Positions 4,710-40,000 of a DNA stretch of 40,000 nucleotides are shown in pieces. The DNA comes from Actinomycetota bacterium (GTDB lineage: Bacteria; Actinomycetota; UBA4738; HRBIN12). Under the pieces are notes generated by a model, which had not been told where the DNA came from, made no database searches, and saw only the letters and a program-made list of their open reading frames with translations. The translations under genes were made by a program, and so were the position numbers. The DNA lies in the NCBI GenBank assembly GCA_035559315.1, contig DATMBJ010000161.1, positions 7,978 through 47,977 on the forward strand. Reading direction: 5' to 3'. Each line of letters begins with the position of its first letter. Within the stretch, counting starts at the first letter, position 1.

Positions 4710-4748
4710 ACCCGGAGCGTATCCGCGGCGGGGCGGCCGTGGGTGCCC

Positions 4749-5351: not shown

Positions 5352-5426
5352 CGCCCCCTCCCGGGCTCAGGGCGAAGCGTCCCCCGACCACGCCCCGCCG
5401 TCAACCCGCCGATGGTCCCCGCCGCC

Positions 5427-5444
5427 GTTGTCCGGGCGGGCAAC
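5427..5444 (-). terminator. Candidate hairpin just downstream of the helicase stop
   Basis: GTTGTCC-GGGC-GGGCAAC forms a 7-bp stem including one G-U pair, with a 4-nt loop. It lies 7 nt after the TAG at 5451-5453. There is no U-tract. Confidence 0.25.
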
Positions 5445-5450
5445 GCGTCG

Positions 5451-9579: not shown

Positions 9580-9582
9580 CGC

Positions 9583-10926: not shown

Positions 10927-10927
10927 C

Positions 10928-10982
10928 GGGCGGCCCTCTCCTCCTCCACGCCTCGGCGCAACGCTACCAGAGCCGGCCGCCC
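10928..10982 (-). other. Hairpin spanning the LCP-antiporter intergenic gap and the antiporter SD
   Basis: GGGCGGCC (10928-10935) pairs with GGCCGCCC (10975-10982). CTCT (10936-10939) pairs with AGAG (10969-10972) across a 2-nt bulge. The loop and stem contain the complement of the GGAGGAGGAGAGG SD. Confidence 0.3.
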
Positions 10983-10986
10983 CGCC

Positions 10987-12680: not shown

Positions 12681-12799
12681 CGGCCGGGGGGCCGGGCAAG
12701 CACCCTTGCTCCGAGGGAGCGATGCCCAACCCCCACCGGTTCGGCGTTCGCCGGGACCGGGCTGGGGCGGGGGGGTAGGATACGGGCGTTCCGTGGGGC

Positions 12800-14212
12800 G
12801 TGCCGGGAAGCCTGGTCGGCGTGGAGGTGGACGACGTGCCGCACGCCGACAGGACGAGCGAACGGACGGGGGCTCGGCGGACCTGGGCCCAGGGCGACGG
12901 CCCGGTGCGCCGGCGCCTGGTCCGGCCCCTCCAGGCGTTCCTGCAGGAGGAGTCCGCGGGCGGCGTCCTGCTGCTCGCGGCGGCGGTGGCGGCCCTCGCC
13001 TGGGCCAACTCCCCGTGGGGCGCGACCTACGAGCGGATCTGGCACACGGAGCTCTCGATCCGGCTCGGCCGATGGGCGATCTCGGAGGACCTCCGCCACT
13101 GGGTGAACGACGCCCTGATGTCGCTGTTCTTCCTGGTGGTGGGCCTCGAGATCAAGCGCGAGCTCGTGACGGGGGAGCTCCGGGATGCGCGGGCGGCGGC
13201 GCTCCCGGCGATCGCCGCCCTGGGCGGGATGGTGGTCCCGGCCCTCATCTACCTGGCGCTCAACCCGAGCGGGGAGGCCGCCCGCGGTTGGGGGATCCCG
13301 ATGGCCACCGACATCGCGTTCGCCGTCGGGGTGCTCACGCTCGCGGCGAGCGTGGCCCCGCCGGGCCTGAAGCCGTTCCTCCTGGCCCTGGCCATCGTGG
13401 ACGACATCGGCGCGATCGTGGTCATCGCGGTCTTCTACTCCGGCGGGGTGGCCTGGGCCCCGCTCGCGGTTGCGGCCGGCCTGTGCGTGCTGATCGCCGC
13501 GGCGTGGCGGTCGGGGGTGCGGTCGGCGCCGGTGCACGTCGCGCTCGGGGCGCTCCTGTGGATCGCCGTGTACGCGTCGGGGGTCCACCCGACGATCGCG
13601 GGGGTGGCGATGGGGCTGCTCACGCCGGCCGTCGCGTTCGAGCGGCCCCGTACGGTGAGCCGCGAGGCCCACCGGGTGGCCGAGGAGACCTCGGACCAGC
13701 CCTGGCCCCCCGACGTCGACGCGCCGCAGTGGCTCGAGCTGGCGCGGCTCGCGCGGGAGGCGGTGTCCCCGCTCGCCCGGCTGGAGGCGACCCTCCACCC
13801 CTGGACGAGCTTCGTCGTGGTGCCGGTCTTCGCCCTGGCCAACGCCGGGGTGCGGCTCTCGGGCGAGGCGCTCCGCGGGGCCCTCGCCAGCCGGGTGACG
13901 CTCGGCGTGCTCCTGGGCCTCGTGGTGGGGAAGACCGTGGGGATCAGCGTCGCGACCCTCGGGGCGGCCCGACTGCGCCTGGCCTCGCTGCCCACGGGGG
14001 CGGATCGCTCGGACGTGGTGGGGACCGCGGCGGTGGCCGGCATCGGTTTCACGGTGTCCCTCTTCATCACGGAGCTGGCGTTCGCGGACCGCGCGCTGGT
14101 GGACGAGGCGAAGGTGGGGATCCTCGCCGCCTCCGTCGTGGCGGGAGCGCTCGGCTTCGCCCTCCTCTCCATCACCCGGGCCCGGGCCGCGTCCCCGTCC
14201 GGCGAGCTATGA
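12800..14212 (+). CDS. nhaA: Na+/H+ antiporter NhaA
   Basis: HWVNDALMSLFFLVVGLEIKRE, GWGIPMATDIAFAVGVL and LALAIVDDIGAIVVIAVFY (the DD pair) are NhaA hallmarks. The N-terminal start (GTG 12800) is uncertain. Confidence 0.9.
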   Translation: MPGSLVGVEVDDVPHADRTSERTGARRTWAQGDGPVRRRLVRPLQAFLQEESAGGVLLLAAAVAALAWANSPWGATYERIWHTELSIRLGRWAISEDLRHWVNDALMSLFFLVVGLEIKRELVTGELRDARAAALPAIAALGGMVVPALIYLALNPSGEAARGWGIPMATDIAFAVGVLTLAASVAPPGLKPFLLALAIVDDIGAIVVIAVFYSGGVAWAPLAVAAGLCVLIAAAWRSGVRSAPVHVALGALLWIAVYASGVHPTIAGVAMGLLTPAVAFERPRTVSREAHRVAEETSDQPWPPDVDAPQWLELARLAREAVSPLARLEATLHPWTSFVVVPVFALANAGVRLSGEALRGALASRVTLGVLLGLVVGKTVGISVATLGAARLRLASLPTGADRSDVVGTAAVAGIGFTVSLFITELAFADRALVDEAKVGILAASVVAGALGFALLSITRARAASPSGEL

Positions 14213-14263
14213 TGGGCCTCCCGCGGGCACGTCGCCCCTGACCTGCGACTTCGAGGAGGCTCC

Positions 14264-16519
<2,256 letters not shown>

Positions 16520-25255: not shown

Positions 25256-27598
25256 ATGGCGAAGACGCTCGTGGTCGTGGAGTCGCCCACCAAGGCGAAG
25301 ACCCTGGAGCGGTACCTCGGGCAGGGGTACACGGTCCGGGCCTCCTACGGGCACATCCGCGACCTCCCCAAGAACAAGCTCGGGGTCGACACCGAACGTG
25401 GGTTCGAGCCCGAGTACGTGGTCCCGGAGGACTCGCAGCGCGCCGTCCGGGAGCTCCGCGCTGCCTTCCGCCGGGCCGGGGACCTCGTCCTGGCCACGGA
25501 CTTCGACCGGGAGGGCGAGGCCATCGCCTACCACGTGGCGGAGGTCCTCGGGGTGGCCCCCGAGGAGGCGAAGCGCGTCACGTTCACCGAGATCACGCGG
25601 GACGCGATCCTCGAGGCGTTCCGCAATCCGCGGGCCATCGATCTCCGGCTCGTCGAGGCCCAGCAGGCCCGCCGCATCCTCGACCGGCTGGTCGGCTACG
25701 GGATCTCGCCGATCCTCTGGAAGAAGGTGCGCCCGGGGCTCTCCGCCGGCCGGGTCCAGTCGGTGGCCCTCCGGCTGATCGTGGACCGCGAGCGGGAGAT
25801 CCGCGCCTTCGTCCCCGTCGAGTACTGGACGATCGACGCCCGCCTGGCCCCGGACGGGGACGAGGAGGCCTTCGTCGCTCGCCTGATCCAGGTCGGGGAG
25901 GAGCGGCTCGCCGTCTCCCCCGACAAGAAGGGGCTCGTGCTCCGGACCGAGGCCGAGGCGGCCGTCCACGCCGAGCGGCTCCGTGGGGCCGCCTACCGCG
26001 TGCGGGAGGTGCGCGAACGAGAGGTGAGGCGGACGCCGCCCCCGCCGTTCACCACCTCCACGCTCCAGCAGGAGGCCGCCCGGAAGCTGGGGTTCTCGGC
26101 GCGGAAGACGATGACGATCGCCCAGCAGCTCTACGAGGGCGTCGACCTGCCGGGCGAGGGCCGGGTCGGGCTGATCACGTACATGCGGACCGACTCCGTG
26201 AACCTCGCAGAGGCCGCGCTCGCCGAGCTCGCCGAGGTGGTCCGGCTCCAGTACGGCCCGGATTACGCGCTGCCCAAGCCCCGCCGGTACCGGACCAGGG
26301 CCCGCGGGGCGCAGGAGGCGCACGAGGCGATCCGGCCCACCGCGCCGAAGCGGTACCACCCCGACGCGGTCGAGGACTCGCTCGACCGTGACCAGGCCCG
26401 CCTCTACCGCCTGATCTGGCAGCGCGCCGTCGCTTCGCAGATGCGCGAGGCCGTCTTCGACCAGGTCTCGGTGGACGTGGAGGCCACGGCGGACGGGGCC
26501 ACCTACCTCCTGCGCGCGACCGGGCAGACCCTCCGGTTCGATGGGTTCCGCCGCGTGTACACCGAGGGGCGGGACGAGCCCTCCGAGGAGGACCGGGAGG
26601 CGCTGCTCCCGCGCCTCCGGGCCGACCAGCCCCTCCGGCTCCTCGAGGTCCTCCCCGAGCAGCACTTCACGCAGCCGCCGCCCCGCTACACCGAGGCGTC
26701 GCTCGTGAAGACCCTGGAGGAGCTGGGGATCGGCCGGCCCTCGACCTACGCCCAGATCATCTCGACGCTCCTCGAGCGGGGGTACGTGCGCCTGGAGGAC
26801 CGGCGCTTCTACCCCGAGGACGTGGGCGAGGTCGTCACCGACCTCCTGGCCGAGTTCTTCCCCGACATCGTCGACGTGAACTTCACGGCGCGGATGGAGG
26901 AGGAGCTCGACGAGATCGCCGAGGGGCGGCTCCGCTGGGTCCAGGTCCTCGACGCCTTCTACGGGCCCTTCGAGCGGCTCCTCGAGAAGAACGAGGTGGA
27001 GATCGAGCGGTTCGAGGAGGAGCTGGACGAGCTCTGCCCGCTCTGCCCCCAGGAGGGGCGGGAGCCCGGCCGGCTCGTGGTGAAGCTCGGCCGGCACGGG
27101 AAGTTCATCGGCTGCCGGAACTACCCCGAGTGCCGCTACACCCGGAACCTGGACGGCGGGGAGCGGCCCGAGCCAGAGGTCCTGGACGAGCGGTGCCCGG
27201 AGTGCGGCCGGCCGCTCGCGCGGAAGGTGGGCCGGTACGGCCCGTTCGTGGGCTGCACGGGCTACCCCGAGTGCCGGTACGTGAAGCGCGAGGACCGCGG
27301 CACCGGGGTCCCGTGCCCGCGGTGCGGGGAAGGGGAGCTGGTGCAGAAGCGCGCCCGCCGGGGCCGGCGCGCGAGCGTCTTCTACGGCTGCGACCGCTAC
27401 CCGGCGTGCGACTTCACGGTGAGCCAGCGCCCGCTCCCGCAGGCCTGCCCGAACTGCGGTTCGCTCCTCGTCCTCCAGCGGGACGGGTCGGGGAAGTGCA
27501 TCGGGTGCGGGCAGGTCGTGGAGGGCGCTGGGGAGGCCGCCGGCCTCGGCCGGGGGGCCTCGCCCGGCGGGCGGGCCGCCGGGTCCGCGGAGGCGTAG
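25256..27598 (+). CDS. topA: DNA topoisomerase I (type IA) with four C-terminal C4 zinc ribbons
   Basis: ATG 25256 sits 5 nt after GAGGA. The TOPRIM N-terminus is LVVVESPTKAKTLERYLG...YGHIRDLP, and the active-site Tyr lies in LITYMRTDS. The four Cys4 modules are CPLC..CRNYPEC, CPEC..CTGYPEC, CPRC..CDRYPAC and CPNC..CIGC. Confidence 0.95.
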   Translation: MAKTLVVVESPTKAKTLERYLGQGYTVRASYGHIRDLPKNKLGVDTERGFEPEYVVPEDSQRAVRELRAAFRRAGDLVLATDFDREGEAIAYHVAEVLGVAPEEAKRVTFTEITRDAILEAFRNPRAIDLRLVEAQQARRILDRLVGYGISPILWKKVRPGLSAGRVQSVALRLIVDREREIRAFVPVEYWTIDARLAPDGDEEAFVARLIQVGEERLAVSPDKKGLVLRTEAEAAVHAERLRGAAYRVREVREREVRRTPPPPFTTSTLQQEAARKLGFSARKTMTIAQQLYEGVDLPGEGRVGLITYMRTDSVNLAEAALAELAEVVRLQYGPDYALPKPRRYRTRARGAQEAHEAIRPTAPKRYHPDAVEDSLDRDQARLYRLIWQRAVASQMREAVFDQVSVDVEATADGATYLLRATGQTLRFDGFRRVYTEGRDEPSEEDREALLPRLRADQPLRLLEVLPEQHFTQPPPRYTEASLVKTLEELGIGRPSTYAQIISTLLERGYVRLEDRRFYPEDVGEVVTDLLAEFFPDIVDVNFTARMEEELDEIAEGRLRWVQVLDAFYGPFERLLEKNEVEIERFEEELDELCPLCPQEGREPGRLVVKLGRHGKFIGCRNYPECRYTRNLDGGERPEPEVLDERCPECGRPLARKVGRYGPFVGCTGYPECRYVKREDRGTGVPCPRCGEGELVQKRARRGRRASVFYGCDRYPACDFTVSQRPLPQACPNCGSLLVLQRDGSGKCIGCGQVVEGAGEAAGLGRGASPGGRAAGSAEA

Positions 27599-29631
27599 TG
27601 GCGGGCTTCGCGGACGAGGTCGCGGCGCTCCGGGGGACCAGGTCGGCGACCCTCCGCGACCTCCTCACCCACCCGCCGTTCTCCCGGCTCCTCGCCGCGA
27701 TGGCGGTGTCCTCGTTCGGGGACTGGGTGGGGTTCGTCGCGGTCACCGCGCTCGTGGCCCGCCTGGGGCGGACGCCGGGGGGCGCGGCGTTCGCGGTCTC
27801 GGGCGTGATGATCGCGCGGATGCTCCCGGCCATCCTGTTCGGGCCCTTCGCCGGCGCGATCGTGGACCGCCTGGACCGCAAGCAGGTGATGATCGTGGCC
27901 GATGCGGCCCGCGCCGCGATGTACTCCTCGATGCCGTTCCTCGGTGAGCTCTGGGCGATCTACCTGCTCTCGTTCGCGATCGAGTGCCTGTCGCTGCTCT
28001 GGACCCCGGCTCGCGACGCGAGCCTGCCCCGGCTCGTGCCCCGCCGCCAGCTGGCGAACGCGAACTCGATCGGGCTGATCACCGCGTACGGCACGCTGCC
28101 GTTCGGTGGCGCGGCGTTCGCCGCCCTCGCGGGGGTGGCGGAAGGGCTCTCGGCCCGGGTCCCCTACCTGGCGGCCCGGCCCGAGGCCCTCGCGCTCTGG
28201 GCCGACGCCGGGACGTTCCTGTTCTCCGCGGTGATGCTCACCGGGGTCCCGATCCGCACCGCGGCCGCCCGGCGCGCGGCCCGGGTGGACCTCACGCTGA
28301 TCGGGCGGGACATCGTGGAGGGCCTGCGGTTCCTCCGGGAGCACCCCCTGGCCCGGGCCATGACCACGGGGATCGTGGTGGCCTTCAGCGCGGTGGGGGC
28401 GGTGCTCGCGCTGGGCCCGGTGTTCGCCACCCAGACCCTGGGGGCCGGGAGCGCCGGCTGGGGGGTCCTGGTCACGGCGTTCGGGGTCGGGATGGGCGTG
28501 GGGATGGCCACGGTGAGCCGCGCGGCCCGGGCCGCCGAGATCGACCAGGTCTTCTCCTGGTCCCTCCTCGCCGCCGCCGCCACGCTCTTCGTCCTGGCCT
28601 CCATGCCGAACCTCTCGCTGGCGTCGGTGCTCACCGTGGTCCTCGGGTTCTTCTGCGGCGCGACGTGGGTCTCGGGCTACGTCCTCCTCCAGGAGAACGT
28701 GCCCGACGAGTACCGGGGGCGGACCTTCGGATCGCTCACCGTCCTCGGCCGCCTCGGGCTGTTCGTCTCGCTCGTCGCGTTCCCCGCCCTGGCCGCGATC
28801 TACGGCGACCACGAGGCGTTCGTGGGCGGCCAGCGGCTGGACCTCTCCGGAACCCGCCTGGCCCTGGCCACGGTCGGCCTGGGGGTCATCGCGGCGGGGA
28901 TCCTCACGCGGCTCGGCCTCCGCCGCCACCGGCTGTCGAAGCCGGTCCCGCTCTCGCTCGTGCCCCGGCTGAAGCGCCCGCCCGCCGCCGGGCTGTTCGT
29001 GGTGTTCGAGGGGGTCGAGGGGTCGGGGAAGGGCACCCAGATCGAGCGGGCGGCGGCGTTCCTCCGCGAGCGCGGCTACGACGTGCTCGTGACCCGGGAG
29101 CCCGGGGGGACCGAGGTCGGCGAGGCCCTCCGCGAGCTCCTGCTCTCGGTCGACACCGGGAGGCTCGAACCGCGGGCCGAGGCGCTCCTGTTCGCCGCGG
29201 CCCGGGCTCAGCACGTGGCCACCGTGATCCGCCCGGCCCTGGCCGAGGGGAAGGTGGTGCTCTGCGACCGCTACGTGGACTCCTCCCTCGCCTACCAGGG
29301 GTGGGGCCGGGGGCTCGGGGAGCAAGACGTGCTCACGCTGAACGTCTGGGCCACGCAGGGGCTCTTCCCCGACCTCGTGATCCTCCTCCACCTCGAGCCC
29401 GAGGAGGGGCTCCGGCGGATCGGCCGCGAGCCCGACCGGATCGAGGCCGAGGGCCCCGGGTTCCTCGACAAGGTGTCGGACGCGTACCTCAGGATCGCGG
29501 AGGAGCACCCCGAGCGGTTCGTCGTGGTCGACGCCGGGCGGCCCGAGGAGGAGGTGGCGGCGGCGGTCCGCGAGGCCCTGCTCCGGCTGCTCAAGGAGCG
29601 CGAGGAGAACCACCCCGGGGGCGCCGGGTGA
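27598..29631 (+). CDS. tmk: Fusion protein: N-terminal MFS-type transporter domain + C-terminal dTMP (thymidylate) kinase
   Basis: GTG 27598 shares its G with the topA TAG and sits 4 nt after GGAGG. Roughly 460 aa form the polytopic MFS-like part (FSRLLAAMAVSSFGDWVGFVAVTAL..., DRLDRKQVMIVAD). The Tmk domain runs from about nt 28981 (FVVFEGVEGSGKGTQ, TREPGGT, DRYVDSSLAYQG). There is no in-frame stop between the two parts. Confidence 0.85.
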   Translation: MAGFADEVAALRGTRSATLRDLLTHPPFSRLLAAMAVSSFGDWVGFVAVTALVARLGRTPGGAAFAVSGVMIARMLPAILFGPFAGAIVDRLDRKQVMIVADAARAAMYSSMPFLGELWAIYLLSFAIECLSLLWTPARDASLPRLVPRRQLANANSIGLITAYGTLPFGGAAFAALAGVAEGLSARVPYLAARPEALALWADAGTFLFSAVMLTGVPIRTAAARRAARVDLTLIGRDIVEGLRFLREHPLARAMTTGIVVAFSAVGAVLALGPVFATQTLGAGSAGWGVLVTAFGVGMGVGMATVSRAARAAEIDQVFSWSLLAAAATLFVLASMPNLSLASVLTVVLGFFCGATWVSGYVLLQENVPDEYRGRTFGSLTVLGRLGLFVSLVAFPALAAIYGDHEAFVGGQRLDLSGTRLALATVGLGVIAAGILTRLGLRRHRLSKPVPLSLVPRLKRPPAAGLFVVFEGVEGSGKGTQIERAAAFLRERGYDVLVTREPGGTEVGEALRELLLSVDTGRLEPRAEALLFAAARAQHVATVIRPALAEGKVVLCDRYVDSSLAYQGWGRGLGEQDVLTLNVWATQGLFPDLVILLHLEPEEGLRRIGREPDRIEAEGPGFLDKVSDAYLRIAEEHPERFVVVDAGRPEEEVAAAVREALLRLLKEREENHPGGAG

Positions 29632-30776: not shown

Positions 30777-31208
30777 GTGGTGCCAGCATCACTGCACGAG
30801 CCCGCTCGCCGTGGGACCCTTGGAGGTGACGTTGGGGGTGCCGTGTCGGTGCGGGTGCTGATCGTGGACGACCAGGCGCCGTTCCGCGTGGCCGCCCGGA
30901 TGGTCGTGGAGGCCACGGAGGGCTTCGAGGTCGTGGGGGAGGCCGAGACCGGGGAGGAGTCGGTCGAGCTCTCGCGCTCGCTCCGCCCCGACCTCGTGCT
31001 GATGGACGTGAACCTCCCGGGGATCGACGGGCTGGAGGCGACGCGGCGGATCCTGGCGCAGGGCGCCCCGGTGGTGCTCCTGCTCTCGACCTACGAGGAG
31101 GAGGAGTACGCGCCGCGGGCCGCGGAGTGCGGCGCCGCCGCCTACATCCCGAAGGCCGTGTTCGGCCCGGACCGTCTGGAGCAGGCCTGGGCTGCCGCCC
31201 GGGGGTAG
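30777..31208 (+). CDS. Stand-alone response-regulator receiver domain (NarL-subfamily type, no output domain)
   Basis: The phosphorylation pocket is intact: LIVDDQ, LVLMDVNLPGIDG, LLLSTY and YIPK. The protein stops right after helix alpha-5 with no HTH. The start is GTG 30777 (2 nt after the holB stop) or, giving a more typical length, GTG 30843. Confidence 0.85.
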   Translation: MVPASLHEPARRGTLGGDVGGAVSVRVLIVDDQAPFRVAARMVVEATEGFEVVGEAETGEESVELSRSLRPDLVLMDVNLPGIDGLEATRRILAQGAPVVLLLSTYEEEEYAPRAAECGAAAYIPKAVFGPDRLEQAWAAARG

Positions 31209-31259: not shown

Positions 31260-33479
31260 TCAGGTTGTCGCCGGGGCGGATCTCACGGGCACGCGGCCGG
31301 CCACGGTGGTCCCTCGGCCCGGAGCGGTCCGGATCTCCAGCGAGCCTCCTAGCGCCTCCAGCCGGTCGGCCATCCCCTGGAGGCCGCTGCCCCGAGGAGC
31401 GGAGGCGGGATCGAAGCCCGCTCCGTCGTCCACGACCTCGAACCGGAGGACCTCGTCCGAGGCCGATAGCCGGACCTCGGCGCGGGCGTCCCCCGCGTAC
31501 TTCGCGACGTTCTGGAGCGCCTCGAGCACCGAGAAGTACACGGCGGCCTCCACCTCCTCGGGGTACCGGGACACGCCGTCGGCTTGGACGGCCACGGGGA
31601 TCGGGGAGCGATGGGCCTGGGCTTGGATCGCGGCCGCCAGGCCGCGATCGGCCAGGAGCGGAGGGTAGATCCCCCGGGCCAGGTCGCGGAGGTTCTCCAG
31701 GGCGTCCGCGGCGTCCCCCTGGAGCTTGGCGATCGCCTCCTTCGCTCGCGTCGCGTCCCGGTCCACCAGCTGTTCGGCCAGGCGGGCGTGCACCGCGAGC
31801 GCCACGAGCTGCTGCTGGGCGCCGTCGTGGAGGTTCCGCTCGATCCGGCGGCGCTCCTCGTCCTGCGCGGCGACCAGGCGGCGCCGGGACTCCCTGAGCT
31901 CCTCGATCAGTCGGACGTTCCGGAGCACGAGGCCGGCCTGTCCGGCGAGGTCGTGCACGAGCTTCTCCTTCGCTGGGTTCATGGGATCCGATGCGGGCAT
32001 CCGGACGGAGAGCGCGCCGAGCAGCTCCCCCCGGTGCCTGACTGCCACCGCATGCTCGCCGCCCTGGAACGACGGCAGCTGGGCGCCGGTGAGCCCGAGG
32101 GGGGCGCTCGTGTGCGCGCCGGTCCCCGCCCCCGGGCGGAGCTCGTCGCCAACGCGGAGCCACACGGTGGCCGCCTCCGCTCCGGTCCCCGCGGCCAGGA
32201 TCTGGGCCATCCTCGGCAGGACGTCCTCGGTCGGGTACGTCCCCGCCATGCGGCCAGAGAACTCCGCGAGCACCTCGTAGGGCGTGGCCCGCTTCCCGTA
32301 CACGAGCCGGTCGGCGATCCGCCTGGCCCGGCGGCGGAGTGGCCCGGTGAGGAGGCCGAGCGCGAGCCCCACCGAGAGCGGGAGGAAGCTGACGTCCGCC
32401 CCGCCCCTCCCGACGAGGGCGAGCGGGACGACGGCGAAGGCGAGGAGACCGAGCATCGTGAGGCCGGCGACCACGACGGCGGCGACCACCGCCTTGCGGA
32501 TCACGACGTCGAGTTCCCACAGGCCGTGACGGAAGATCGCCACGAGGTAGGCGGCTGGGATCCCGGCGGCCAGCGTGAAGGCGGTGAGCCCCAACAGGAC
32601 GTCGAAGACCGGGAGGTCCGCGTCCCGGAGGAAGAACGCGGCTCCCAGCCCCAGCATCCACTGGAGCGCCAGGAAGGTCCCGCCCAACAGGGCCACCGAC
32701 ACGAGCCAGCGAACCCGCTGGCGCTCCCCGCCCACCGACGCCCGGAACCGTTGCCGCACGGCGAAGGCGGTGGAAAGGGCGGATGTGAGGGCGATCATGG
32801 TTCCCAGGGCGATCACCCCACCGCCGGAGCGAGCGAACGCATCGATCCCGAAGGGGTTCTGGTAGAGGATCCCGTTCTGGAGCCAGGTGTTCATCGGGCC
32901 GGGCCGGAGCAGGAACCCGACGAAGGCGATCGTTGCGCCGCCGATGAGCCCCCGGACCGCCCACCGCCACCGGGGGCTCGGGGGATGGCCGTTCGGGTAG
33001 AGGACGAATAGGAGGGGGACGAGCGCGATCGGGTACTGGACGTACTCACCCAGCACGGCCCAGGCGCCGATCAGCGGGACCGCGCCCGGCTTCGTCTTCA
33101 CCCCGTAGACGACGAGCGGGAGCAGGAAGGAGAGCAACGGGAGCGGTGCCCCGACGGCGACGAAGATCCATCCCGCCCAGTTGCCCGGCTGCCGGGAGAC
33201 GATGAGGGAGCCCACGATGATCCATCCCAGCGCGATCGCGACGAGTATCCCGGTGATCCAGCTTCCACCGCTCTCGGGATCGCCCCGGACGGCGAGGTCC
33301 GCCCGGACCTCCTCCAGGACCTCCCGCGTTCGGGCCGTGTCGAAGTCGCCGCCGACGACGACGACGTCCGGGGTCCGGGCGGCCCGGTTGGCCGCGTTCA
33401 GCGGCATGCTGGCGACGATGGCCGCCGCGCACACCGCGAGGATCGCCAGCGAGAGTCCCCGGGCGGCGCCGCGGCTCAC
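31260..33479 (-). CDS. Polytopic sensor histidine kinase, GAF-like + HisKA_3 + HATPase_c (array member HK1)
   Basis: H-box is EERRRIERNLHDGAQQQLVAL, N-box LEALQNVAKYA, G-boxes VDDGAGFD and GSGLQGMADR. The multi-TM N-terminus has SRQPGNWAGWIF and RHGLWELDVVIRK. GTG 33477-33479 overlaps the HK2 stop (GTGA). The upstream in-frame ORF extension was rejected. Confidence 0.9.
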   Translation of the reverse strand: MSRGAARGLSLAILAVCAAAIVASMPLNAANRAARTPDVVVVGGDFDTARTREVLEEVRADLAVRGDPESGGSWITGILVAIALGWIIVGSLIVSRQPGNWAGWIFVAVGAPLPLLSFLLPLVVYGVKTKPGAVPLIGAWAVLGEYVQYPIALVPLLFVLYPNGHPPSPRWRWAVRGLIGGATIAFVGFLLRPGPMNTWLQNGILYQNPFGIDAFARSGGGVIALGTMIALTSALSTAFAVRQRFRASVGGERQRVRWLVSVALLGGTFLALQWMLGLGAAFFLRDADLPVFDVLLGLTAFTLAAGIPAAYLVAIFRHGLWELDVVIRKAVVAAVVVAGLTMLGLLAFAVVPLALVGRGGADVSFLPLSVGLALGLLTGPLRRRARRIADRLVYGKRATPYEVLAEFSGRMAGTYPTEDVLPRMAQILAAGTGAEAATVWLRVGDELRPGAGTGAHTSAPLGLTGAQLPSFQGGEHAVAVRHRGELLGALSVRMPASDPMNPAKEKLVHDLAGQAGLVLRNVRLIEELRESRRRLVAAQDEERRRIERNLHDGAQQQLVALAVHARLAEQLVDRDATRAKEAIAKLQGDAADALENLRDLARGIYPPLLADRGLAAAIQAQAHRSPIPVAVQADGVSRYPEEVEAAVYFSVLEALQNVAKYAGDARAEVRLSASDEVLRFEVVDDGAGFDPASAPRGSGLQGMADRLEALGGSLEIRTAPGRGTTVAGRVPVRSAPATT

Positions 33480-35566
33480 GCACCCACCCCCGTCGCGATC
33501 CGGAGCGGGATCCGGCCGCGCACCCGGGTCCCCTGGCCCGGCGCGCTCCTCACCTCCAGCTCGCCCTCGAGGGCCTCGACGCGATCCCGCATCACCTGCA
33601 GGCCCCTGCCGGGCGGGGTGGCGGCTGGGTCGAAGCCGGGGCCGCCGTCGAGCACCTCGAACCGGACCGCGTCCTCCTCGCGATCCAGGCGCACGACGAC
33701 CGGAGCATCCGGCGCGTGGCGCTGCACGTTCCGCAGGGCCTGGACCAGGCAGAAGTAGATCGCGGCCTCGGTCTCCGGCTGGAGCCGCGCCGCCGCCATC
33801 GGCTCGTCCACCGAGACCTCGGCCTCGATCCCCGCCTTGCGCACGAGGGCCCGGAGGGCCGCCACGACCCCCTCGTCGGCGAGGAGCGGCGGGTAGATCC
33901 CTCGGGCGAGGTCGCGGAGCTCCTCGAGCGTCGCGTTGGCGACTCCGCCCAGCTCCTCGAGCACCGCGCCGGCTTCCGCCGGGTCGGTCGGCGCCAGGCC
34001 GGCTGCCCGGTCCACCTCGGCCCGCATCGTGAGCAGGTGCCGCTCCGGCCCCTCCCGGATCTCCCGCTCCAAGCGCCGGCGCTCCTCGTCGCGGGCGGTG
34101 ACCAGCCGCTCGCGGGAGCGGCGGAGGTCCTCGGCCTGCGCCGTGAGCTCCTCCAGCCGGGCCTCCAGCTCGGCGGCGAGGCCCGCGTTCCGGAGGGCGA
34201 GGCCCGCCTGCGAGGCGAGGTCCTCGAGCAGGCGGCGCTCGGCCGGGGTGAGCGGGTCGCCCGGCGCCTTGGAAACGGCGATCTCCCCCACCCGCTCGCC
34301 CCGGTGCTCGACGGGCACGGCGGCGGTCTCCGGAAGCTGCGGGTCGACCTCCGGCCAGGCCGCCTCGCGCCGCGTTCCGTCGGGCAGGGCCAGAGCGACC
34401 CGCCCCCAGGCGGCGCCCACGCCGCGCGCGGCCACCTCCGCCATCGCGGGGAGGGTCTCGTCCACGGACAGCGTGTCCGCCATGCGATGCGCGAAGCCGG
34501 CCATGACCTCGTAGGGCGTCGCCCGCTCCCCGTACACGAGTCGGTTGGCCAGCCGCTGGACCCGCTCCCGGACCGGCTGGAACGCCACCGCGACGACCGC
34601 GGTCGCCGCGATCTGGAGCGCCACGCTCGGCTCCCCCACCCTGCCCAGAGCGGACCCCAGCCCCACCACGATCGCCACGTAGACGCCGGTGACGAACGCG
34701 GCGAGTGCCCCGAACACCACCGTGCGGTTGATCACGAGGTCGATGTCGAACAGGCGGTGCCGCACGATCGCGATCCCGCACGCGATCGGGATGAAGGCGA
34801 GGCCGAGCAAGATGACGGACCCGAAGATCCGGGAGCGGTCGAGCGCGGGCACGAGCGTCGCGAGCGCGATCGACGACGCGAGGAGTATCGCGGCGAAGCT
34901 GAACCACTTGAGTTGGAGGCGCTCCTCGCCCCGCGACCGACGGAACCGGACGAGGAGCGAGGCGGCCGCCGCGACGAGGATCGCGCCGAACACCAGGGAG
35001 AAGATCTGGAAGGCGAGCGTCTCCTCGATGTCGCGCACGCCCGTCCACTCGACGCCGATCGGGTTCGGGACCGTGCGGCCGACCATCGACAGCGTCGGCC
35101 GGAGCGCCGAGGCGACGGTGATCGCCGCCACCGACAGCACGGCGAGCCACAGGACCGGCCGCCAACCGCGCGAGGGGAGCCCTGAGGGGAAGAGCAGCAG
35201 GGGGAACGCGGTGGCCATCGCGACGAGGGGGTACCAGAACCAGGTCTGGCTCCAGGCGGCCAGGATCCCGAGCGCCGAGGGCGGGCCGGGTCGCGAGAAG
35301 GCGATCTCCGCGTAGTCCTCCCCGACGGCCCCCACGGCGACCAGGACCCCGATCCCCAGGAAGAGCCAGCCGATCGGGTTCCCGGGGCGCCTCGACGCGA
35401 CGACGGCCCCGACGGTGGGGAACGCCGTGAAGGCCACGAGGAGGGGGACGTCCTGGAGGGGGTCCCCGGAGATCTCCGGCCCGGTGACGGCCAGGTCCCA
35501 GCCGAGCCCGATCGCGAAGAGCGTCCAGAGCCCCCAGGCCAGCGCGAAGATCGCACGGGGCCTCAC
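33476..35566 (-). CDS. Polytopic sensor-kinase paralog lacking the phospho-acceptor His (array member HK2, probable pseudokinase)
   Basis: The architecture matches the others (SRRPGNPIGWLFL, RFRRSRGEERLQLKW, RHRLFDIDLVINR, GAF-like region, N-box VQALRNVQRHA, DGGPGFD). The H-box, however, reads EERRRLEREIREGPERHLL, with Arg codon CGG at 34055-34057 where the paralogs have His. GTG 35564-35566 overlaps the HK3 stop. Confidence 0.85.
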   Translation of the reverse strand: MRPRAIFALAWGLWTLFAIGLGWDLAVTGPEISGDPLQDVPLLVAFTAFPTVGAVVASRRPGNPIGWLFLGIGVLVAVGAVGEDYAEIAFSRPGPPSALGILAAWSQTWFWYPLVAMATAFPLLLFPSGLPSRGWRPVLWLAVLSVAAITVASALRPTLSMVGRTVPNPIGVEWTGVRDIEETLAFQIFSLVFGAILVAAAASLLVRFRRSRGEERLQLKWFSFAAILLASSIALATLVPALDRSRIFGSVILLGLAFIPIACGIAIVRHRLFDIDLVINRTVVFGALAAFVTGVYVAIVVGLGSALGRVGEPSVALQIAATAVVAVAFQPVRERVQRLANRLVYGERATPYEVMAGFAHRMADTLSVDETLPAMAEVAARGVGAAWGRVALALPDGTRREAAWPEVDPQLPETAAVPVEHRGERVGEIAVSKAPGDPLTPAERRLLEDLASQAGLALRNAGLAAELEARLEELTAQAEDLRRSRERLVTARDEERRRLEREIREGPERHLLTMRAEVDRAAGLAPTDPAEAGAVLEELGGVANATLEELRDLARGIYPPLLADEGVVAALRALVRKAGIEAEVSVDEPMAAARLQPETEAAIYFCLVQALRNVQRHAPDAPVVVRLDREEDAVRFEVLDGGPGFDPAATPPGRGLQVMRDRVEALEGELEVRSAPGQGTRVRGRIPLRIATGVGA

Positions 35567-37719
35567 GGGACGGCCTCCACGACGCGGATCGGGACCTCGC
35601 CCTCGACCGTCGTTCCCCGGCCCGGCGGCGAGCGCACCTCGAGGCGGCCCCCCAGCGCCTCCACCCGGTCGGCCATGTTGCGCAGGCCCGCGCCGGCGGG
35701 GACGGTGGCGGGGTCGAAGCCCCTCCCGTCGTCCCGGACCGAGAAGAAGAGGTGACCGGCCGCCTCGGCGAGCTGGATCCGGACCTCGCTCGCGGCCGCG
35801 TGCTTCACGGCGTTCTGGAGCGCCTCCAGGCACGCGAAGTACACCGCCGCCTCGGTCTCGATCGGCCGCCGGGCCAGCCCGTCGGCCTCGATCCGCACGG
35901 GGACGTCCGCCAGTCGGGCCTGGTCCTCCAGGGCGGCCGCGATGCCGCGCTCCTCGAGGACCGCCGGGTAGATCCCGCCGGCCAGGTCCCGGAGCGTCGC
36001 CAGCGCCTGGTCGATCTCGGCCCGGAGCTCCTCCAGGAGCTCCGCGGCCCGACGGGGGTCGCGGGCCAGGACGTCCCGGGCCAGACGGAACTTCACGGCG
36101 AGCGCCACGAGGTGCTGCTGCGCGCCGTCGTGGATGTTCCGCTCCAGGCGCCGCCGCTCCGCGTCGTGCGCGGCCACGATCCTCCGGCGCGACGAACGGA
36201 GCTCCTCCGCCCGGGCCGCGATCTGCTCCAGGCGGGCCCGGAGCACCTCGGTGAGGCGAGCGTTGCGGAGCACCTGGCCGGCCTGCTTCGCCAGGTCGTC
36301 GAGGAGGGACTCCTCGGCCGGCGCGAGCGGCTCGCCGGCGGGCTTCGCCACGGCGACGGCCCCCAGGAACTCCCCCTGGTGCTCGACCAGGACGGCACGG
36401 GTGGCGCCGGGGAGCTCCGGGAGCCGTCCATCGACCATCGGGAGCGATAGGAGACGCCTCCCCTCGTCCTCCGGCCATGCCGCGCCGAGGCGGAGGTCCT
36501 CACCGACGCGGAGCCACACCTCCGCCCGGGCGGCGCCGGTGCCCTCCCCGATCACCCGGGCCGTCCGGGGCAGGACGTCCTCGCTGGCGTAGGTGCCGGC
36601 GGCCCGGGACGCGAAGCGGGCCAGGACCTCGTAGGGCTCGGCCCGCCCCCCGTAGACGAGGCGGTTCGCCAGGCGCCGGGCCCGCTCCCGGACCGGCTGG
36701 AACGCGAGCGCCACGAGCGCGGTCGCCGCCATCTGGAGGGTGAGGTCGGGCTCCGCCCTCCCGAGGAGCGACCCCACGCCGACGACGACGCCGATGTAGA
36801 CGGCCGTGATGAACGCTGCCAGCACACCGAAGACGACCGTCTTGTTGATGACGACGTCGATGTCGTAGAGGCGGTACTTGAGGACGGCGATCGCCACGGC
36901 GGCCGGCGTCCCCACGAGGAACGTGAGGGTGACCGCCACCCAGTAGATCGCCCCCGCTGTGTGCCCGAGCGCGTCCTCTGCCACCAGGAGGTCGAGCAGG
37001 AAGCCGGTGAGGACCAGGAGCGCGGCCAGGACGCCGACGTAGACCAGCCACCTGAGCTGGTGCCGTTCCTCCCCCCGGGCCCGGCGGTACCGCAGGACGA
37101 GGGAGGCGACGCCGAGGGCGCCCGAGGCCACCACCATCGCCACGCCGCCGTTCACCAGGGCGGTGGTGAGGGCCTCCGTCCCCGGGATCCCGACGGGGTT
37201 GGGGATGGACGGGATCCTGGGATCGGGGTCTCCGTAGATCTCCCCCGGCCGGAACGCCGCCCACGCCGTCACGCACGCGGCCCCCGCCCACCAGAGGTGC
37301 GTCGCCCATCGCCATCGCGGCCCGGCCACCCGCCCTGTGGGGAACAGCGCGAACAGGAGCGGCACCGGGAGCGCCATCCACATCCCGACGAGATCATTGA
37401 CCCAGGCCACCGCGGGGATGAGAGGGAGACCATCGACGCCGGTGGTGTAGGCGGCCTGGATGTAGCTCTCCGTGAGGAACGTGAGGCCGGCCGAGAGCGC
37501 GATCACCTGGAACAGCCAGCCGATCGCGTTCCCGGCCCTCCTCACGATGAATGCCCCCAGCAGGGAGGTCCCGCCCATCCCCAGGGCGACGGGGGACCAT
37601 CCCCAACCGCCGCCGCCCCGTGCGCCGGAGGCAGCGATGGCGACCCCGAGGACCCCGGCGAGGACCACGGTGAGCCAGAACACCGAAGTCGAGAGGTGGC
37701 GCGCGGTCCTGGTGTTCAT
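35563..37719 (-). CDS. Polytopic sensor histidine kinase, GAF-like + HisKA_3 + HATPase_c (HK3)
   Basis: H-box is AERRRLERNIHDGAQQHLVAL, N-box LEALQNAVKHA, followed by RDDGRGFD and GAGLRNMADR. ATG 37717-37719 overlaps the HK4 stop (ATGA). Confidence 0.9.
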   Translation of the reverse strand: MNTRTARHLSTSVFWLTVVLAGVLGVAIAASGARGGGGWGWSPVALGMGGTSLLGAFIVRRAGNAIGWLFQVIALSAGLTFLTESYIQAAYTTGVDGLPLIPAVAWVNDLVGMWMALPVPLLFALFPTGRVAGPRWRWATHLWWAGAACVTAWAAFRPGEIYGDPDPRIPSIPNPVGIPGTEALTTALVNGGVAMVVASGALGVASLVLRYRRARGEERHQLRWLVYVGVLAALLVLTGFLLDLLVAEDALGHTAGAIYWVAVTLTFLVGTPAAVAIAVLKYRLYDIDVVINKTVVFGVLAAFITAVYIGVVVGVGSLLGRAEPDLTLQMAATALVALAFQPVRERARRLANRLVYGGRAEPYEVLARFASRAAGTYASEDVLPRTARVIGEGTGAARAEVWLRVGEDLRLGAAWPEDEGRRLLSLPMVDGRLPELPGATRAVLVEHQGEFLGAVAVAKPAGEPLAPAEESLLDDLAKQAGQVLRNARLTEVLRARLEQIAARAEELRSSRRRIVAAHDAERRRLERNIHDGAQQHLVALAVKFRLARDVLARDPRRAAELLEELRAEIDQALATLRDLAGGIYPAVLEERGIAAALEDQARLADVPVRIEADGLARRPIETEAAVYFACLEALQNAVKHAAASEVRIQLAEAAGHLFFSVRDDGRGFDPATVPAGAGLRNMADRVEALGGRLEVRSPPGRGTTVEGEVPIRVVEAVP

Positions 37720-39776
37720 CCGCCATCCCCCCGCACGGGGATGCGGCCCTCCACGACCGTGCCGCTGCCCGTCGCGCTCCGGATCTCGAGAGACCCGCCG
37801 AGCGCGTCGAGCCGGTCGGCCATGTTCCGGAGCCCGGCGCCGAGCGGCGTGGAGTTCGGATCGAACCCCGGGCCGTCGTCCTCCACCGCGAACCGCAGCT
37901 CGCGGTCCTCGGGCCACAGGCGGACGATCACGCGGGACCCGGGCGCGTACTTCGCGGCGTTCTGGAGGGCCTCGAGCACGCAGAAGTACACGGCCGCCTC
38001 GACCTCGGGTGGATACCGCCCCACCGCGTCGGCGTCGACCGTGACGGCGACCGGGGCCTTCCGGGCCTGTGCCTGGAGGGCCGACGCCAGCCCCTCGTCA
38101 GCGAGCAGTGGCGGGTAGATCCCGCGGGCCAGGTCGCGGAGGTCGTCGAGCGCCCGGCCCATCTCCTCCCGGAGCTCGGCCAGGATCTCGTGCGCTCGCT
38201 CATCGTCCCCACCGACGAGGGAGTCCGCCAGCCGGGCCTTCACGGCGAGCGCCACGAGCTGCTGCTGCGCGCCGTCGTGGATGTTCCGCTCGATCCGTCG
38301 GCGCTCCTCGTCCTGGGCGGCCACCAGGCGCTGCCGGGACGCCCGGAGGTCCTCGATCAGCCGCACGTTCCGCAGGACCAGCCCGGCCTGGGCCGCGACG
38401 TCGCGGATCAGGTCCTCCTGGGTCGGCGTGAGCGGCTCGTTCGGCGGCATCGCGACGGAGATCGCCCCCAAGAGCTCGCCCTGGTGGCGGACCTCGAACG
38501 CCGGGTCGAGCGGCGCCGGATCGGCGCCGGCCGGCCACGTGACGGCCGGGCGGTGCGCGTCCGCGGTGCGCAGCCAGATCGTCACGCGAGCGGCCCCCGT
38601 GCCCTCGGCGAGGACGCGGGCCATCCGGGGCAGGACGTCGTCGAGGGAGTAGGAGCCGGCTAGGCGGGCGGAGAACTCGGCGAGGACCTCGTACGGTGTG
38701 GCCCGTTCCCCGTACACGAGCCGGTTCGCGAGTCGCTGCGCCCGACGCCGCACGGGCTGGAACGCGACGGCCACGACCGCCGCGGCGACCCCCGAGAGCA
38801 GGACGTTCCCCCGGCTCCCGATGGCGGCCCCCACCCCCACGACGATCCCGACGTAGACGAGCGTGATGAACGCGGCGAGGAGCCCGACCGCGACGGCCTT
38901 CGAGATCACGACGTCGATGTCCCACAGCCGGTGCTTGAGGATCGCGATCCCCACCGCCACCGGGACGGTGGCGAACGAGAGGATCACGAGCGTCTCGAGC
39001 GCATCCGACGTCGGTGACTCCTGGGGTCCACGTTGCGCGCCCACGCCCACCGTGAGGAAGCTCAGCGACAGGGTGACGGCGACGAGCAGCCCGGAGGAGG
39101 CGAGCCACTTGAGCTGCTGCCGCTCGTCCCCGCCTGCGCGCCGGTAGCGCACGACGAGCGAGGAAGCCCCGGCGAGGGCCGCCGCCGTGTACAGCGGGAG
39201 GCCGAGGAGGTACACGAGCGCCGGCGTACCGCTCACGTCCAGGACGCCGAAGGGGTTCTCGAGCACGGAGAAGTTCTCGAGCGGCCCCCGGGTGAGGGCG
39301 AGGCCCGCCGAGGCCACGATGACTCCCACGGCGCCGATCACCGGGACCACCCGCCAGCGTCGGGACGGCAGAGCCCCGGTCGGGAAGATCGGGAACAGGA
39401 AGACCGCGACGAGCGACGTGGCGGGGACCCAGATCCAGGCCGGCACCCAGGCGGCGACGGTTCCTCCGGGGAGCGCCCCTGGCTCCGTGAGCACGGCGTA
39501 GACCGCGTAGTCCTGCGCGAGTTCCTGGACGGCGGAGAGCACGCCGACGGCGAGGAACATCCACCCGATCGGGTTCCCCGGGCGCCGCGAGGCGACGACC
39601 GCCCCGACCGTGGGGAAGACGACGACGAAGATGAGGGTGAACCCCCGGAACCCGAACGTGCCGGCAGGGAGCGGCGTCCGCCAGCCGAGCACGAGGAACA
39701 CGCTGGCGACCACCCCCAGGGCGATCGCCAGCGCCCAGAGCGACCAGGCCAGGCGCCTCGCGGGGGACGGGTTCAC
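37716..39776 (-). CDS. Polytopic sensor histidine kinase, GAF-like + HisKA_3 + HATPase_c (HK4)
   Basis: H-box is EERRRIERNIHDGAQQQLVAL, N-box LEALQNAAKYA, followed by EDDGPGFD and GAGLRNMADR. GTG 39774-39776 overlaps the HK5 stop (GTGA). Confidence 0.9.
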   Translation of the reverse strand: MNPSPARRLAWSLWALAIALGVVASVFLVLGWRTPLPAGTFGFRGFTLIFVVVFPTVGAVVASRRPGNPIGWMFLAVGVLSAVQELAQDYAVYAVLTEPGALPGGTVAAWVPAWIWVPATSLVAVFLFPIFPTGALPSRRWRVVPVIGAVGVIVASAGLALTRGPLENFSVLENPFGVLDVSGTPALVYLLGLPLYTAAALAGASSLVVRYRRAGGDERQQLKWLASSGLLVAVTLSLSFLTVGVGAQRGPQESPTSDALETLVILSFATVPVAVGIAILKHRLWDIDVVISKAVAVGLLAAFITLVYVGIVVGVGAAIGSRGNVLLSGVAAAVVAVAFQPVRRRAQRLANRLVYGERATPYEVLAEFSARLAGSYSLDDVLPRMARVLAEGTGAARVTIWLRTADAHRPAVTWPAGADPAPLDPAFEVRHQGELLGAISVAMPPNEPLTPTQEDLIRDVAAQAGLVLRNVRLIEDLRASRQRLVAAQDEERRRIERNIHDGAQQQLVALAVKARLADSLVGGDDERAHEILAELREEMGRALDDLRDLARGIYPPLLADEGLASALQAQARKAPVAVTVDADAVGRYPPEVEAAVYFCVLEALQNAAKYAPGSRVIVRLWPEDRELRFAVEDDGPGFDPNSTPLGAGLRNMADRLDALGGSLEIRSATGSGTVVEGRIPVRGDGG

Positions 39777-40000
39777 GGGACGGCCCCCTGGCGGATCGGA
39801 AGCCTCCCCGCCACAACGGTGCCCGCCCCTGGAGAGGTGCGAACCTCGAGCGAGCCCCCGAGGGCCTCGATGCGGTCGGCCATGTTCTGGAGGCCGGCCC
39901 CCCGGGGGGTGGTGGACGGGTCGAAGCCCGGCCCGTCGTCCTCCACGGCGAACGCCAGCTCGCCGCCGGAGGCCGACAGGCGGACCCGGATCGCCGATCC
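39773..40000 (-). CDS. Sensor histidine kinase, C-terminal HATPase_c fragment only (HK5; 5' part beyond window)
   Basis: This ORF is not in the supplied track. My own translation of the minus strand gives ...IRVRLSASGGELAFAVEDDGPGFDPSTTPRGAGLQNMADRIEALGGSLEVRTSPGAGTVVAGRLPIRQGAVP-stop (TGA 39773-39775), colinear with the C-termini of HK1-4. Confidence 0.8.
   Translation of the reverse strand, partial: GSAIRVRLSASGGELAFAVEDDGPGFDPSTTPRGAGLQNMADRIEALGGSLEVRTSPGAGTVVAGRLPIRQGAVP

Follow-up and report, generated by a model that had tools for sequence, protein, structure and literature searches.

A cluster of genes for paralogous sensor kinases was analysed in a 40,000-nucleotide stretch of DNA (the window) from contig DATMBJ010000161.1 of an Actinomycetota metagenome-assembled genome (MAG). 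One of these genes, designated HK2, encodes a membrane sensor kinase homologue in which arginine occupies the position of the phospho-accepting histidine. The data presented below suggest that HK2 is a selectively maintained pseudo-histidine kinase, and that it most likely serves as the non-phosphorylatable partner subunit in a heterodimer with HK3, the product of the gene directly upstream; judging from sequence comparisons and structure models, we would give this reading a probability of roughly one half. Selection has preserved the membrane sensor domain and GAF-like module of HK2, as well as its DHp scaffold and catalytic ATP-binding (CA) domain.

The window has a G+C content of 74%, and the kinase genes all lie on its minus strand, with boundaries set by start-codon analysis. 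Four complete genes (HK1 to HK4) and one that is cut by the end of the window (HK5) form an array of at least five members. An earlier note on this DNA had taken HK2 for the second kinase of the array; in transcription order it is the fourth. The gene boundaries found here are those of NCBI proteins HWO70794-6, encoded on a 47,978-bp contig in an Actinomycetota MAG, and HWO70795.1, which is identical to HK2, is labelled only 'ATP-binding protein'. The reading frame of HK2 is intact over 696 aa, and its G+C content at third codon positions (GC3), 0.96, is like that of its neighbours.

The reverse complement of positions 34030-34080 translates as RRLEREIREGPERHLLT. HK2 reads LEREIR504EGPERH in the region where the neighbouring kinases read ERNIHDGAQQ. 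The acceptor codon is CAC in HK1 (31827-31829), HK3 (36130-36132) and HK4 (38277-38279), whereas HK2 has CGG, two changes away, and the residue that follows is Glu (GAG) in place of the Asp of the neighbours. The histidine-to-arginine replacement reported in the earlier note is therefore confirmed. The motif D-x-x-x-Q is the phosphatase motif of such kinases, represented by Asp189 and Gln193 in DesK (PMC5231405, PMC3510030). In the clade to which HK2 belongs (clade X, described below) it is replaced by E-G-P-x-R; at column +5, R has a frequency of 0.59 in clade X, and Q a frequency of 0.95 in the His-bearing (His-type) paralogues. Because Arg504 stands in place of His, HK2 is predicted to have no capacity to take phosphate at the canonical site. 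A role for HK2 as a dedicated phosphatase was also considered, and was ruled out by the loss of DxxxQ.

The kinase fold is kept in HK2 (DHp and CA domains in an AlphaFold2 (AF2) model) while the essential His is missing, which places it among the pseudo-histidine kinases. The Pfam HATPase_c match of HK2 scores 43 bits, and the N-box (QALRN613VQRHA), G1 box (D640-G-G642-P-G644-F-D) and G2 box (G653-R-G655-L) are all present; across 25 clade members no variation is seen at N613, D640, G642, G644 or G655, and G653 is at least 90% conserved. The DHp domain matches Pfam HisKA_3 (PF07730) with 26.8 bits (cut-off 24), as compared with approximately 50 bits for the neighbours. For the GAF domain, the PF01590 match is 22.9 bits against a cut-off of 22.4 and covers only model positions 83-133 (the C-terminal 50 residues), matches to GAF_2 and GAF_3 are under their cut-offs, and all NCBIfam matches of HK2 are far under theirs. 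In the AF2 model (monomer; predicted local distance difference test, pLDDT, 78), HK2 consists of a helical membrane bundle, a small alpha/beta module, a long helix (residues 441-505) and the CA domain. The alpha/beta module, the GAF-like module referred to above, comprises approximately 90 residues, with two helices and four strands at residues 350-432, and the long helix breaks in the model at G506-P507, just after Arg504. The best solved relative of HK2 by sequence is DesK (E = 2e-7), and the top Foldseek matches are DesK and HK853. The membrane domain modelled alone (pLDDT 86; predicted template modelling score, pTM, 0.78) gave no significant match by fold in the PDB. The earlier note had described an intact frame, retained sensor, GAF and ATP-binding boxes, and the drifted motifs VMRDR and ALEGEL; all of these were recovered here except that the GAF assignment is marginal.

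In a search of 5.8 billion proteins, HK2 matched an identical entry, orthologues with 74-76% identity and a long run of proteins with 45-53% identity. Approximately 100 of the 120 best homologues (45-76% identity) are without His at the acceptor position, with the consensus LVTARDxQRRxLERDI-R-EGP; a few of the 120 have S or Q there, and the remainder include ordinary IHDGAQQ kinases. When 1.84 billion representatives of clusters formed at 50% identity were searched with a profile, 17,696 relatives were found at E <= 1e-30, and among the best 150 of these, 36 lack His (R in 19, S in 8, N in 3, Q in 2, D in 2, E in 1 and T in 1). A locus survey, in which one genome per species was scanned, provided 78 loci, all from MAGs with Actinomycetota, Dormibacterota or Chloroflexota labels; these, three metagenome loci (81 altogether) and the window constitute the survey set. 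Scanning of this set with a hidden Markov model identified 309 open reading frames (ORFs) of the family, of which 212 have His at the acceptor position, 41 R, 8 S, 4 E, 4 Q, 1 G and 1 N, while 38 are partial. The family ORFs are grouped in arrays, each with 2 to 8 or more genes that are read in one direction.

For a neighbour-joining (NJ) distance tree of the 217 full-length members, the H-box columns were masked. A single clade of 62 members, clade X, takes in every one of the 51 full-length non-His proteins. At least 48 of the 51 were placed in one split with no more than 15 His-bearing members in 81 of 100 bootstrap replicates, and trees of the juxtamembrane/GAF region alone (50 + 8) or of the CA domain alone (49 + 9) likewise yielded the clade. 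A tree from the membrane domain alone did not recover it (best split 8 + 1); this domain is too divergent, so that membership of clade X rests on the cytoplasmic part. All 155 family members outside clade X have His, from which it follows that the HK2 pattern is more than chance, and His together with an intact CA domain is found in 154. Catalytic loss, confined in this way, is therefore a property of one old paralogue lineage, and the residue at the acceptor position varies freely within that lineage. The loss of His, which might have been sporadic, is kept across a large clade.

The ATP-binding motifs vary within clade X. The N, G1 and G2 boxes are kept in 33 of the 51 non-His members, HK2 included, and in all inspected members of the Actinomycetota subclade that holds HK2; they have also been lost in the remaining 18, most of which are from Dormibacterota/Chloroflexota bins and which include some of the S, E and N types. 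Nine members of the clade keep His with intact ATP motifs (IHEGP), six of which read LQRDIHEGP and carry every other clade signature, and two keep His with a degenerate CA domain. Relatives in which His is kept and the N, G1 and G2 boxes are lost were noted at L056 (2934-5138) and L052 (2821-5466), and as P0135, P0137, P0146, P0178, P0183, P0193 and P0219. Such proteins are the mirror image of HK2, as would be expected if kinase and acceptor functions were split between partners.

Orthologues of HK2 in three related MAG loci are intact and 73-78% identical to it, and in the same loci the orthologues of HK3 are 61-63%, those of HK4 61% and those of HK1 approximately 49% identical. Ratios of non-synonymous to synonymous divergence (dN/dS) were calculated with the NG86 method only, and are to be read as relative values, since the high GC3 probably depresses dS and inflates them. 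The ratio for HK2 is approximately 0.30 overall, with 0.18-0.25 for the DHp domain, 0.33-0.34 for the membrane domain, and, for the CA domain, 0.35-0.39 against loci L004 and L001 and 0.72 against the end-truncated copy in L005. Values for HK3 are 0.52-0.64; they are raised by the near-saturation of its membrane domain (dN 0.65-0.69), its cytoplasmic domains being tightly conserved. Across the clade, the acceptor Arg is encoded by CGG (13), CGT (10), CGC (9) and CGA (5), and this use of all four CGN codons points to synonymous turnover under conservation of the amino acid. Three related assemblies, independent of one another, share the REGP motif and its CGG codon, and REGP recurs in dozens of more distant ones. 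With the loss of His conserved, the orthologues intact and dN/dS near 0.30, the description of HK2 in the earlier note as a dedicated pseudokinase, and not a decaying pseudogene, has held up.

It was also considered that the His-less gene might generally be the best-conserved member of its array. This was rejected, as it holds only among the three close relatives and not over 666 locus pairs in which clade X genes and upstream His genes were compared. Membrane identity in these pairs is 37% for clade X and 34.5% for the neighbours. On this scale, the rates of evolution of clade X and its neighbours are comparable, and clade X is therefore under ordinary purifying selection rather than exceptionally conserved.

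Two observations concern the His-bearing neighbours in the related loci. The HK3-type genes of the close MAGs L004 (3220-8004) and L001 (604-3630), counterparts of window positions 35563-37719, are 91-96% identical in nucleotide and 94% in amino acid sequence over the cytoplasmic half, and only 54.5% and 41% identical, respectively, over the membrane sensor half (dN 0.67, dS 0.78); the adjoining His-less genes are approximately 95% identical in nucleotide sequence throughout. The pattern looks like replacement of sensor modules, or extreme diversification, in the His-bearing paralogues, and no donor of the divergent sensor half was found among the 81 loci. In L004, the HK1-type gene is split over two frames (9272-14224 and 11367-12296), which is either an assembly frameshift or a real pseudogene, and the His-less gene next to it is intact.

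Column entropies were compared between 37 clade X members and size-matched samples of His-type paralogues. The sole marked relaxation in clade X lies in DHp helix 1 just after the acceptor (2.0 bits versus 0.93 in His types). Entropy is slightly raised in the signalling-helix linker (1.43 versus 1.10 bits) and in the CA domain (1.52 versus 1.40 bits); helix 1 before the acceptor is equal in the two sets; and conservation in clade X exceeds that in His types for the membrane domain, juxtamembrane region, GAF-like module and helix 2. With DesK as a model, the stretch of helix 1 after the acceptor is presumed to contact the response regulator too, and it thus seems that the regulator-docking face of helix 1 has been freed from constraint in clade X. 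In the His-type paralogues, this post-acceptor stretch (HDGAQQxLVALAVKL) is nearly invariant across paralogues and genomes, which would fit many kinases addressing one regulator. Clade X also carries fixed changes in the N-box, namely Glu to Gln four residues before the Mg-binding Asn (the minus-4 position) and Lys to Arg. In CpxA, the residue equivalent to minus-4, Asn356, contacts the acidic residue beside the His, and its mutation impairs kinase activity (PMC3904827). The change at minus-4 and that on the acceptor side thus mean that both sides of the catalytic contact are altered together.

The organization of the arrays is itself informative. Their junctions are 4-bp NTGA overlaps in 36 of 39 His-to-X, 27 of 30 X-to-His and 51 of 59 His-to-His cases, and the translational coupling proposed in the earlier note is real, with GTGA or ATGA overlaps at the array junctions of the window. 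A clade X gene is present in 58 of the 78 loci with a full-length member, and 54 of the 58 have exactly one. Such genes are preceded by another family gene in 53 of 62 cases; five stand first in their array, all in Dormibacterota/Chloroflexota bins and each followed by a family gene, and none of the 62 is solitary.

The array head and regulator of the HK2 locus are deduced from related loci, as the array leaves the window at position 40000 and no NarL-type regulator lies within the window. Among related loci whose upstream flank is long enough, most have the gene for a well-conserved NarL-type regulator at the head of the array (full-length matches, E approximately 1e-100 to 1e-113); L004, the 77% orthologous locus, has a partial copy of such a gene directly upstream of its array. 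A receiver-cyclase is divergently transcribed beside the regulator in related loci. This divergent pair at the array head, a receiver-guanylate/adenylate cyclase with a NarL-type regulator, is found at 4102-6111 of locus L002 and has equivalents in approximately 40 loci; proteins that bind cyclic nucleotide monophosphates are encoded near the array head in L002 as well. The arrays may feed both transcription and cyclic-nucleotide output.

The strongest argument for a particular partner comes from the helix that connects the GAF-like module to the DHp domain. The His-bearing genes directly upstream of clade X genes (upstream-H) form an orthogroup of their own, the nearest cross-locus neighbour being another upstream gene in 32 of 39 cases (background 25%), and those downstream (downstream-H) likewise group together (25 of 32). 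The helix has lengths of 6, 13 and 20 residues only, which are exact heptad steps. It is long in 61 of 62 clade X members and 36 of 39 upstream-H genes and short in 27 of 32 downstream-H genes, other paralogues being mostly short or medium; in helix length, the clade X gene agrees with the upstream gene in 38 of 41 arrays, and with the downstream gene in only 7 of 34. Equal helix length is needed to keep the DHp domains in register in a parallel coiled coil, and the match therefore favours, albeit indirectly, the pairing of HK2 with HK3. It also counts in favour of this pairing that the NJ tree, the resolution of which is limited, does not make the upstream-H clade the sister of clade X. A comparison of charge complementarity in the coiled coil, using the clade X and upstream-H consensus sequences, revealed nothing decisive. 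Helix length quantized in heptads may serve paralogous kinases more generally as a code for pairing or register. The pairing with intact paralogues that the earlier note had proposed gains support from these helix lengths, from the NTGA junctions and from the absence of solitary clade X genes, while physical contact between HK3 and HK2, like the direction of phosphorylation and the sign of regulation, is something that we infer.

The mechanism that we favour may be outlined as follows. HK2 would be made in fixed proportion with HK3, the His-bearing kinase encoded directly upstream, and would join it via signalling helices of equal length and the DHp domains, giving a permanently asymmetric heterodimer to which HK2 brings its own signal input and a nucleotide-bound CA domain. 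In such a trans-acting dimer, the CA domain of HK2 would phosphorylate His530 of HK3, and only HK3 would pass the phosphate on, to the NarL-type regulator found at the array head in related genomes. A wider proposal, which is tentative and on balance doubtful, is that the arrays are hard-wired asymmetric receptor dimers. One clade X subunit per array would pair with one helix-matched His-bearing orthogroup, contributing an active ATP-binding domain in trans and a second input (a two-signal output), the shorter-helix paralogues with rapidly exchanged sensors would form separate dimers on the same regulator, and helix length would be the pairing code for up to eight paralogues.

Several points weigh against the heterodimer. 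Paralogous kinases are usually insulated from heterodimerization, and HK3 has an intact CA domain of its own, so that it is not obviously in need of a donor. The N-box of HK2 has Gln at minus-4 from the Asn and not the Glu of its neighbours, so that the active site of its CA domain is altered too. Because 18 of the 51 His-less members have lost N, G1 and G2, ATP use cannot be the clade-wide function, and the nine members that keep His with intact ATP motifs may be ordinary kinases. In the available sequence, a full-length clade X member is missing from at least five arrays that hold three or four His-type genes of full length. Over the 666 locus pairs, cytoplasmic identity is 55% for clade X and 60% for the upstream His genes. 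Finally, common descent could explain the matched helix length if the distance tree misplaces the groups.

The relatives with degenerate CA domains favour an alternative in which HK2 is an inhibitory decoy. It would be drawn into dead-end heteromers and, on its own signal, lower the output of the His-bearing paralogues in the style of RetS-GacS, with a non-catalytic CA domain. RetS disrupts the GacS dimer interface (PMC8498467), HK2 has neither the acceptor His, the phosphatase motif nor constraint on the regulator-docking face, and the relatives without ATP binding remain intact ORFs at the same array position, as would suit a scaffold-only role. A pure decoy, however, needs none of the N, G1 and G2 boxes that are kept in all inspected members of the Actinomycetota subclade of HK2, and the minus-4 Gln and the Lys-to-Arg change of the N-box are conserved rather than drifting. 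We regard this alternative as possible, but clearly less probable than a functional HK3:HK2 heterodimer.

It is less likely still that HK2 is a stand-alone homodimeric sensor that lies outside the phosphorelay, binds nucleotide and controls another protein by contact (the single receiver at 30777-31208, or the receiver-cyclase of related loci), in the manner of NifL or DivL. The retention of ATP-binding boxes without an acceptor would be explained, receivers are conserved around the arrays, and DivL does read the phosphorylation state of a regulator with kinase-like domains (PMC4211667). The canonical docking surface on helix 1 is, however, the very region that has lost constraint; clade X genes never occur without an adjoining family member; and the length of the signalling helix tracks that of the upstream kinase.

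We consider it very improbable that HK2 is still a kinase with another acceptor, be it His510, some other residue or the Arg itself. The CA motifs are intact, and His510 is only six residues downstream on the same helix. The column of His510 is nevertheless occupied mostly by Q, E or R in the clade, so that the shifted acceptor raised in the earlier note is not borne out; the acceptor position varies (R, S, Q, E, N, D or T) with no single chemistry conserved; and neither the DxxxQ motif nor the docking face remains. An error of sequencing or assembly, or a recent pseudogene drifting neutrally, is scarcely credible, for although the source is a MAG and the L004 orthologue of HK1 appears frameshifted, REGP with CGG recurs in the three independent related assemblies (and REGP in the dozens of distant ones), and HK2 combines an intact ORF and a GC3 of 0.96 with a dN/dS of about 0.3.

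Table 1. Coordinates of the kinase array, of features within HK2 and HK3, and of the adjoining receiver gene (positions in the window)
Feature	Position	Strand	Remarks
HK2, His-less membrane sensor kinase paralogue	33476..35566	-	696 aa; clade X; ORF and start codon, Pfam; NCBI HWO70795.1
HK3, His-bearing kinase directly upstream of HK2; proposed partner	35563..37719	-	718 aa; His530; long signalling helix; 'upstream-H' orthogroup
HK1, His-bearing kinase	31260..33479	-	739 aa; His551; short signalling helix; 'downstream-H' array position
HK4, His-bearing kinase	37716..39776	-	686 aa; His500; short signalling helix
HK5, C-terminal 74 residues of a fifth kinase	39773..40000	-	off window at 40000; G1 and G2 boxes visible
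GTGA overlap, HK5 and HK4	39773..39776	-	
ATGA overlap, HK4 stop and HK3 start	37716..37719	-	
GTGA overlap, HK3 stop and HK2 start	35563..35566	-	
GTGA overlap, HK2 stop and HK1 start	33476..33479	-	
HK2 N-terminal multi-helix membrane sensor domain	34532..35566	-	residues 1-345; AF2 pLDDT 86, pTM 0.78; no solved fold relative
HK2 14-residue (two-heptad) signalling-helix stretch	34136..34177	-	AAELEARLEELTAQ; absent in HK1 and HK4
HK3 two-heptad stretch, matching that of HK2	36208..36249	-	EVLRARLEQIAARA
Arg504 codon (CGG) at phospho-acceptor position	34055..34057	-	aligned to DesK His188
E505-G-P-E-R509, in place of D-x-x-x-Q phosphatase motif	34040..34054	-	HDGAQQ in neighbours
His510 (ERH), candidate shifted acceptor	34037..34039	-	not conserved in clade
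HK2 CA domain	33497..33868	-	N-box (Q609, N613, R616), G1 (D640, G642, G644), G2 (G653, G655)
Single-domain receiver, convergent with array	30777..31208	+	DD, D, T and K active-site residues present

The single-domain receiver gene recurs at the 3' end of many related arrays. In the window it starts one base after the end of the holB ORF (30775), and its product could be a phosphate sink or a connector. Beyond it lie holB, tmk and topA, as in locus L002. Between topA and holB, an 833-aa ORF (27130-29631, plus strand) encodes an MFS transporter (MFS_3/MFS_1) fused to thymidylate kinase, a fusion also seen in L002. Elsewhere in the window, tandem AA_permease_2 transporter paralogues (18342-20690 and approximately 20700-23047, plus strand), the second of which was seen only in the ORF translation, have long C-terminal extensions and, at their N-termini, the near-identical motif LLPK(I/V)LALPVFSSD. 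A DEAD-box helicase resembling MrfA is encoded at 5451-7718 (minus strand) and carries an HRQ1 winged helix as well as a MrfA Zn-binding domain at the C-terminus; an ion-handling block comprises TerC (8602-9579), an Na/Ca exchanger (9583-10926), NhaA (12800-14212) and an H+-pyrophosphatase (14264-16519).

Sensor kinases are usually treated as symmetric homodimers, with one kinase per regulator and with paralogues insulated from one another. Many uncultured soil Actinomycetota and Dormibacterota keep arrays of 2-8 co-translated paralogues in which the clade X members have for the most part lost the acceptor His, together with the phosphatase motif and the docking face, while apparently keeping sensing and, in the Actinomycetota subclade of HK2, the ATP-binding motifs. 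If HK2 does pair with its upstream neighbour, the pair would be a natural, evolutionarily stable heterodimeric kinase, and would offer a route to testing trans autophosphorylation in this family, the use of dimer asymmetry and the sorting of paralogues into dimers. The cytoplasmic fragments are small soluble domains, and could be tested without culturing the organisms. A caution regarding annotation is also in order: HK2 is labelled an 'ATP-binding protein', and its relatives are labelled 'histidine kinase' despite the missing His. No description of a HisKA_3 clade with an acceptor Arg, one member per coupled multi-kinase array and a partner-matched helix length was found in the literature searched, in which only pseudokinases of other kinds came up.

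Pseudo-histidine kinases as such are already known, and include DivL, RocA, PsmA and the proposed FasC. The gene for RocA lies away from covS. RocA is a membrane-spanning kinase homologue for which autophosphorylation is not needed and which interacts with the true sensor kinase CovS (PMC7028121); unlike RocA, HK2 has no His and retains its ATP motifs, and its translation is coupled to that of the presumed partner. PsmA of Streptomyces is conserved and without the catalytic His, the residue at that position varying by species amid conserved surroundings (PMC12963549). In this respect it resembles clade X, but it is a hybrid of the HisKA type, is cytoplasmic, no longer binds ATP and has DivIVA as its working partner. 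DivL of Caulobacter, likewise a conserved kinase-like protein without the catalytic His (PMC4211667), retains the regulator-binding face with which it reads DivK, whereas the docking face is relaxed in HK2. Neither PsmA nor DivL lies within an array of paralogous kinases, as HK2 does. RetS-GacS provides a precedent for the control of one sensor kinase by another through direct DHp contact, and not phosphotransfer to a regulator (PMC8498467), but RetS retains its kinase motifs, is encoded separately and is inhibitory.

In terms of fold and motif layout, the closest relatives of HK2 are the DesK/NarX-type HisKA_3 kinases (PF07730 + PF02518), with which it has the DHp and CA domains in common; HK1, HK3 and HK4 carry their full H-D-x-x-x-Q. 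It differs from that type in having no acceptor His and no DxxxQ, in the Gly-Pro directly after the acceptor position, in the N-box Gln for Glu and Arg for Lys, and in an N-terminal multi-helix sensor domain without a solved relative. As regards the proposed division of labour, a likeness is found in FasB/FasC of Streptococcus pyogenes, the products of adjacent kinase-like genes that heterodimerize, one giving the kinase domain and the other the phosphorylated His, to act on one regulator (PMC12675982). The HK3/HK2 pair, with its GTGA overlap, follows the same tandem, co-encoded logic. The proposed pseudokinase of the Fas system (FasC) keeps its His and has a dispensable CA domain, whereas HK2 is without His and has kept its CA domain; and Fas is a single pair whose heterodimer has been shown experimentally, whereas clade X occurs in arrays of 2 to 8 or more genes, for which the heterodimer is proposed here.

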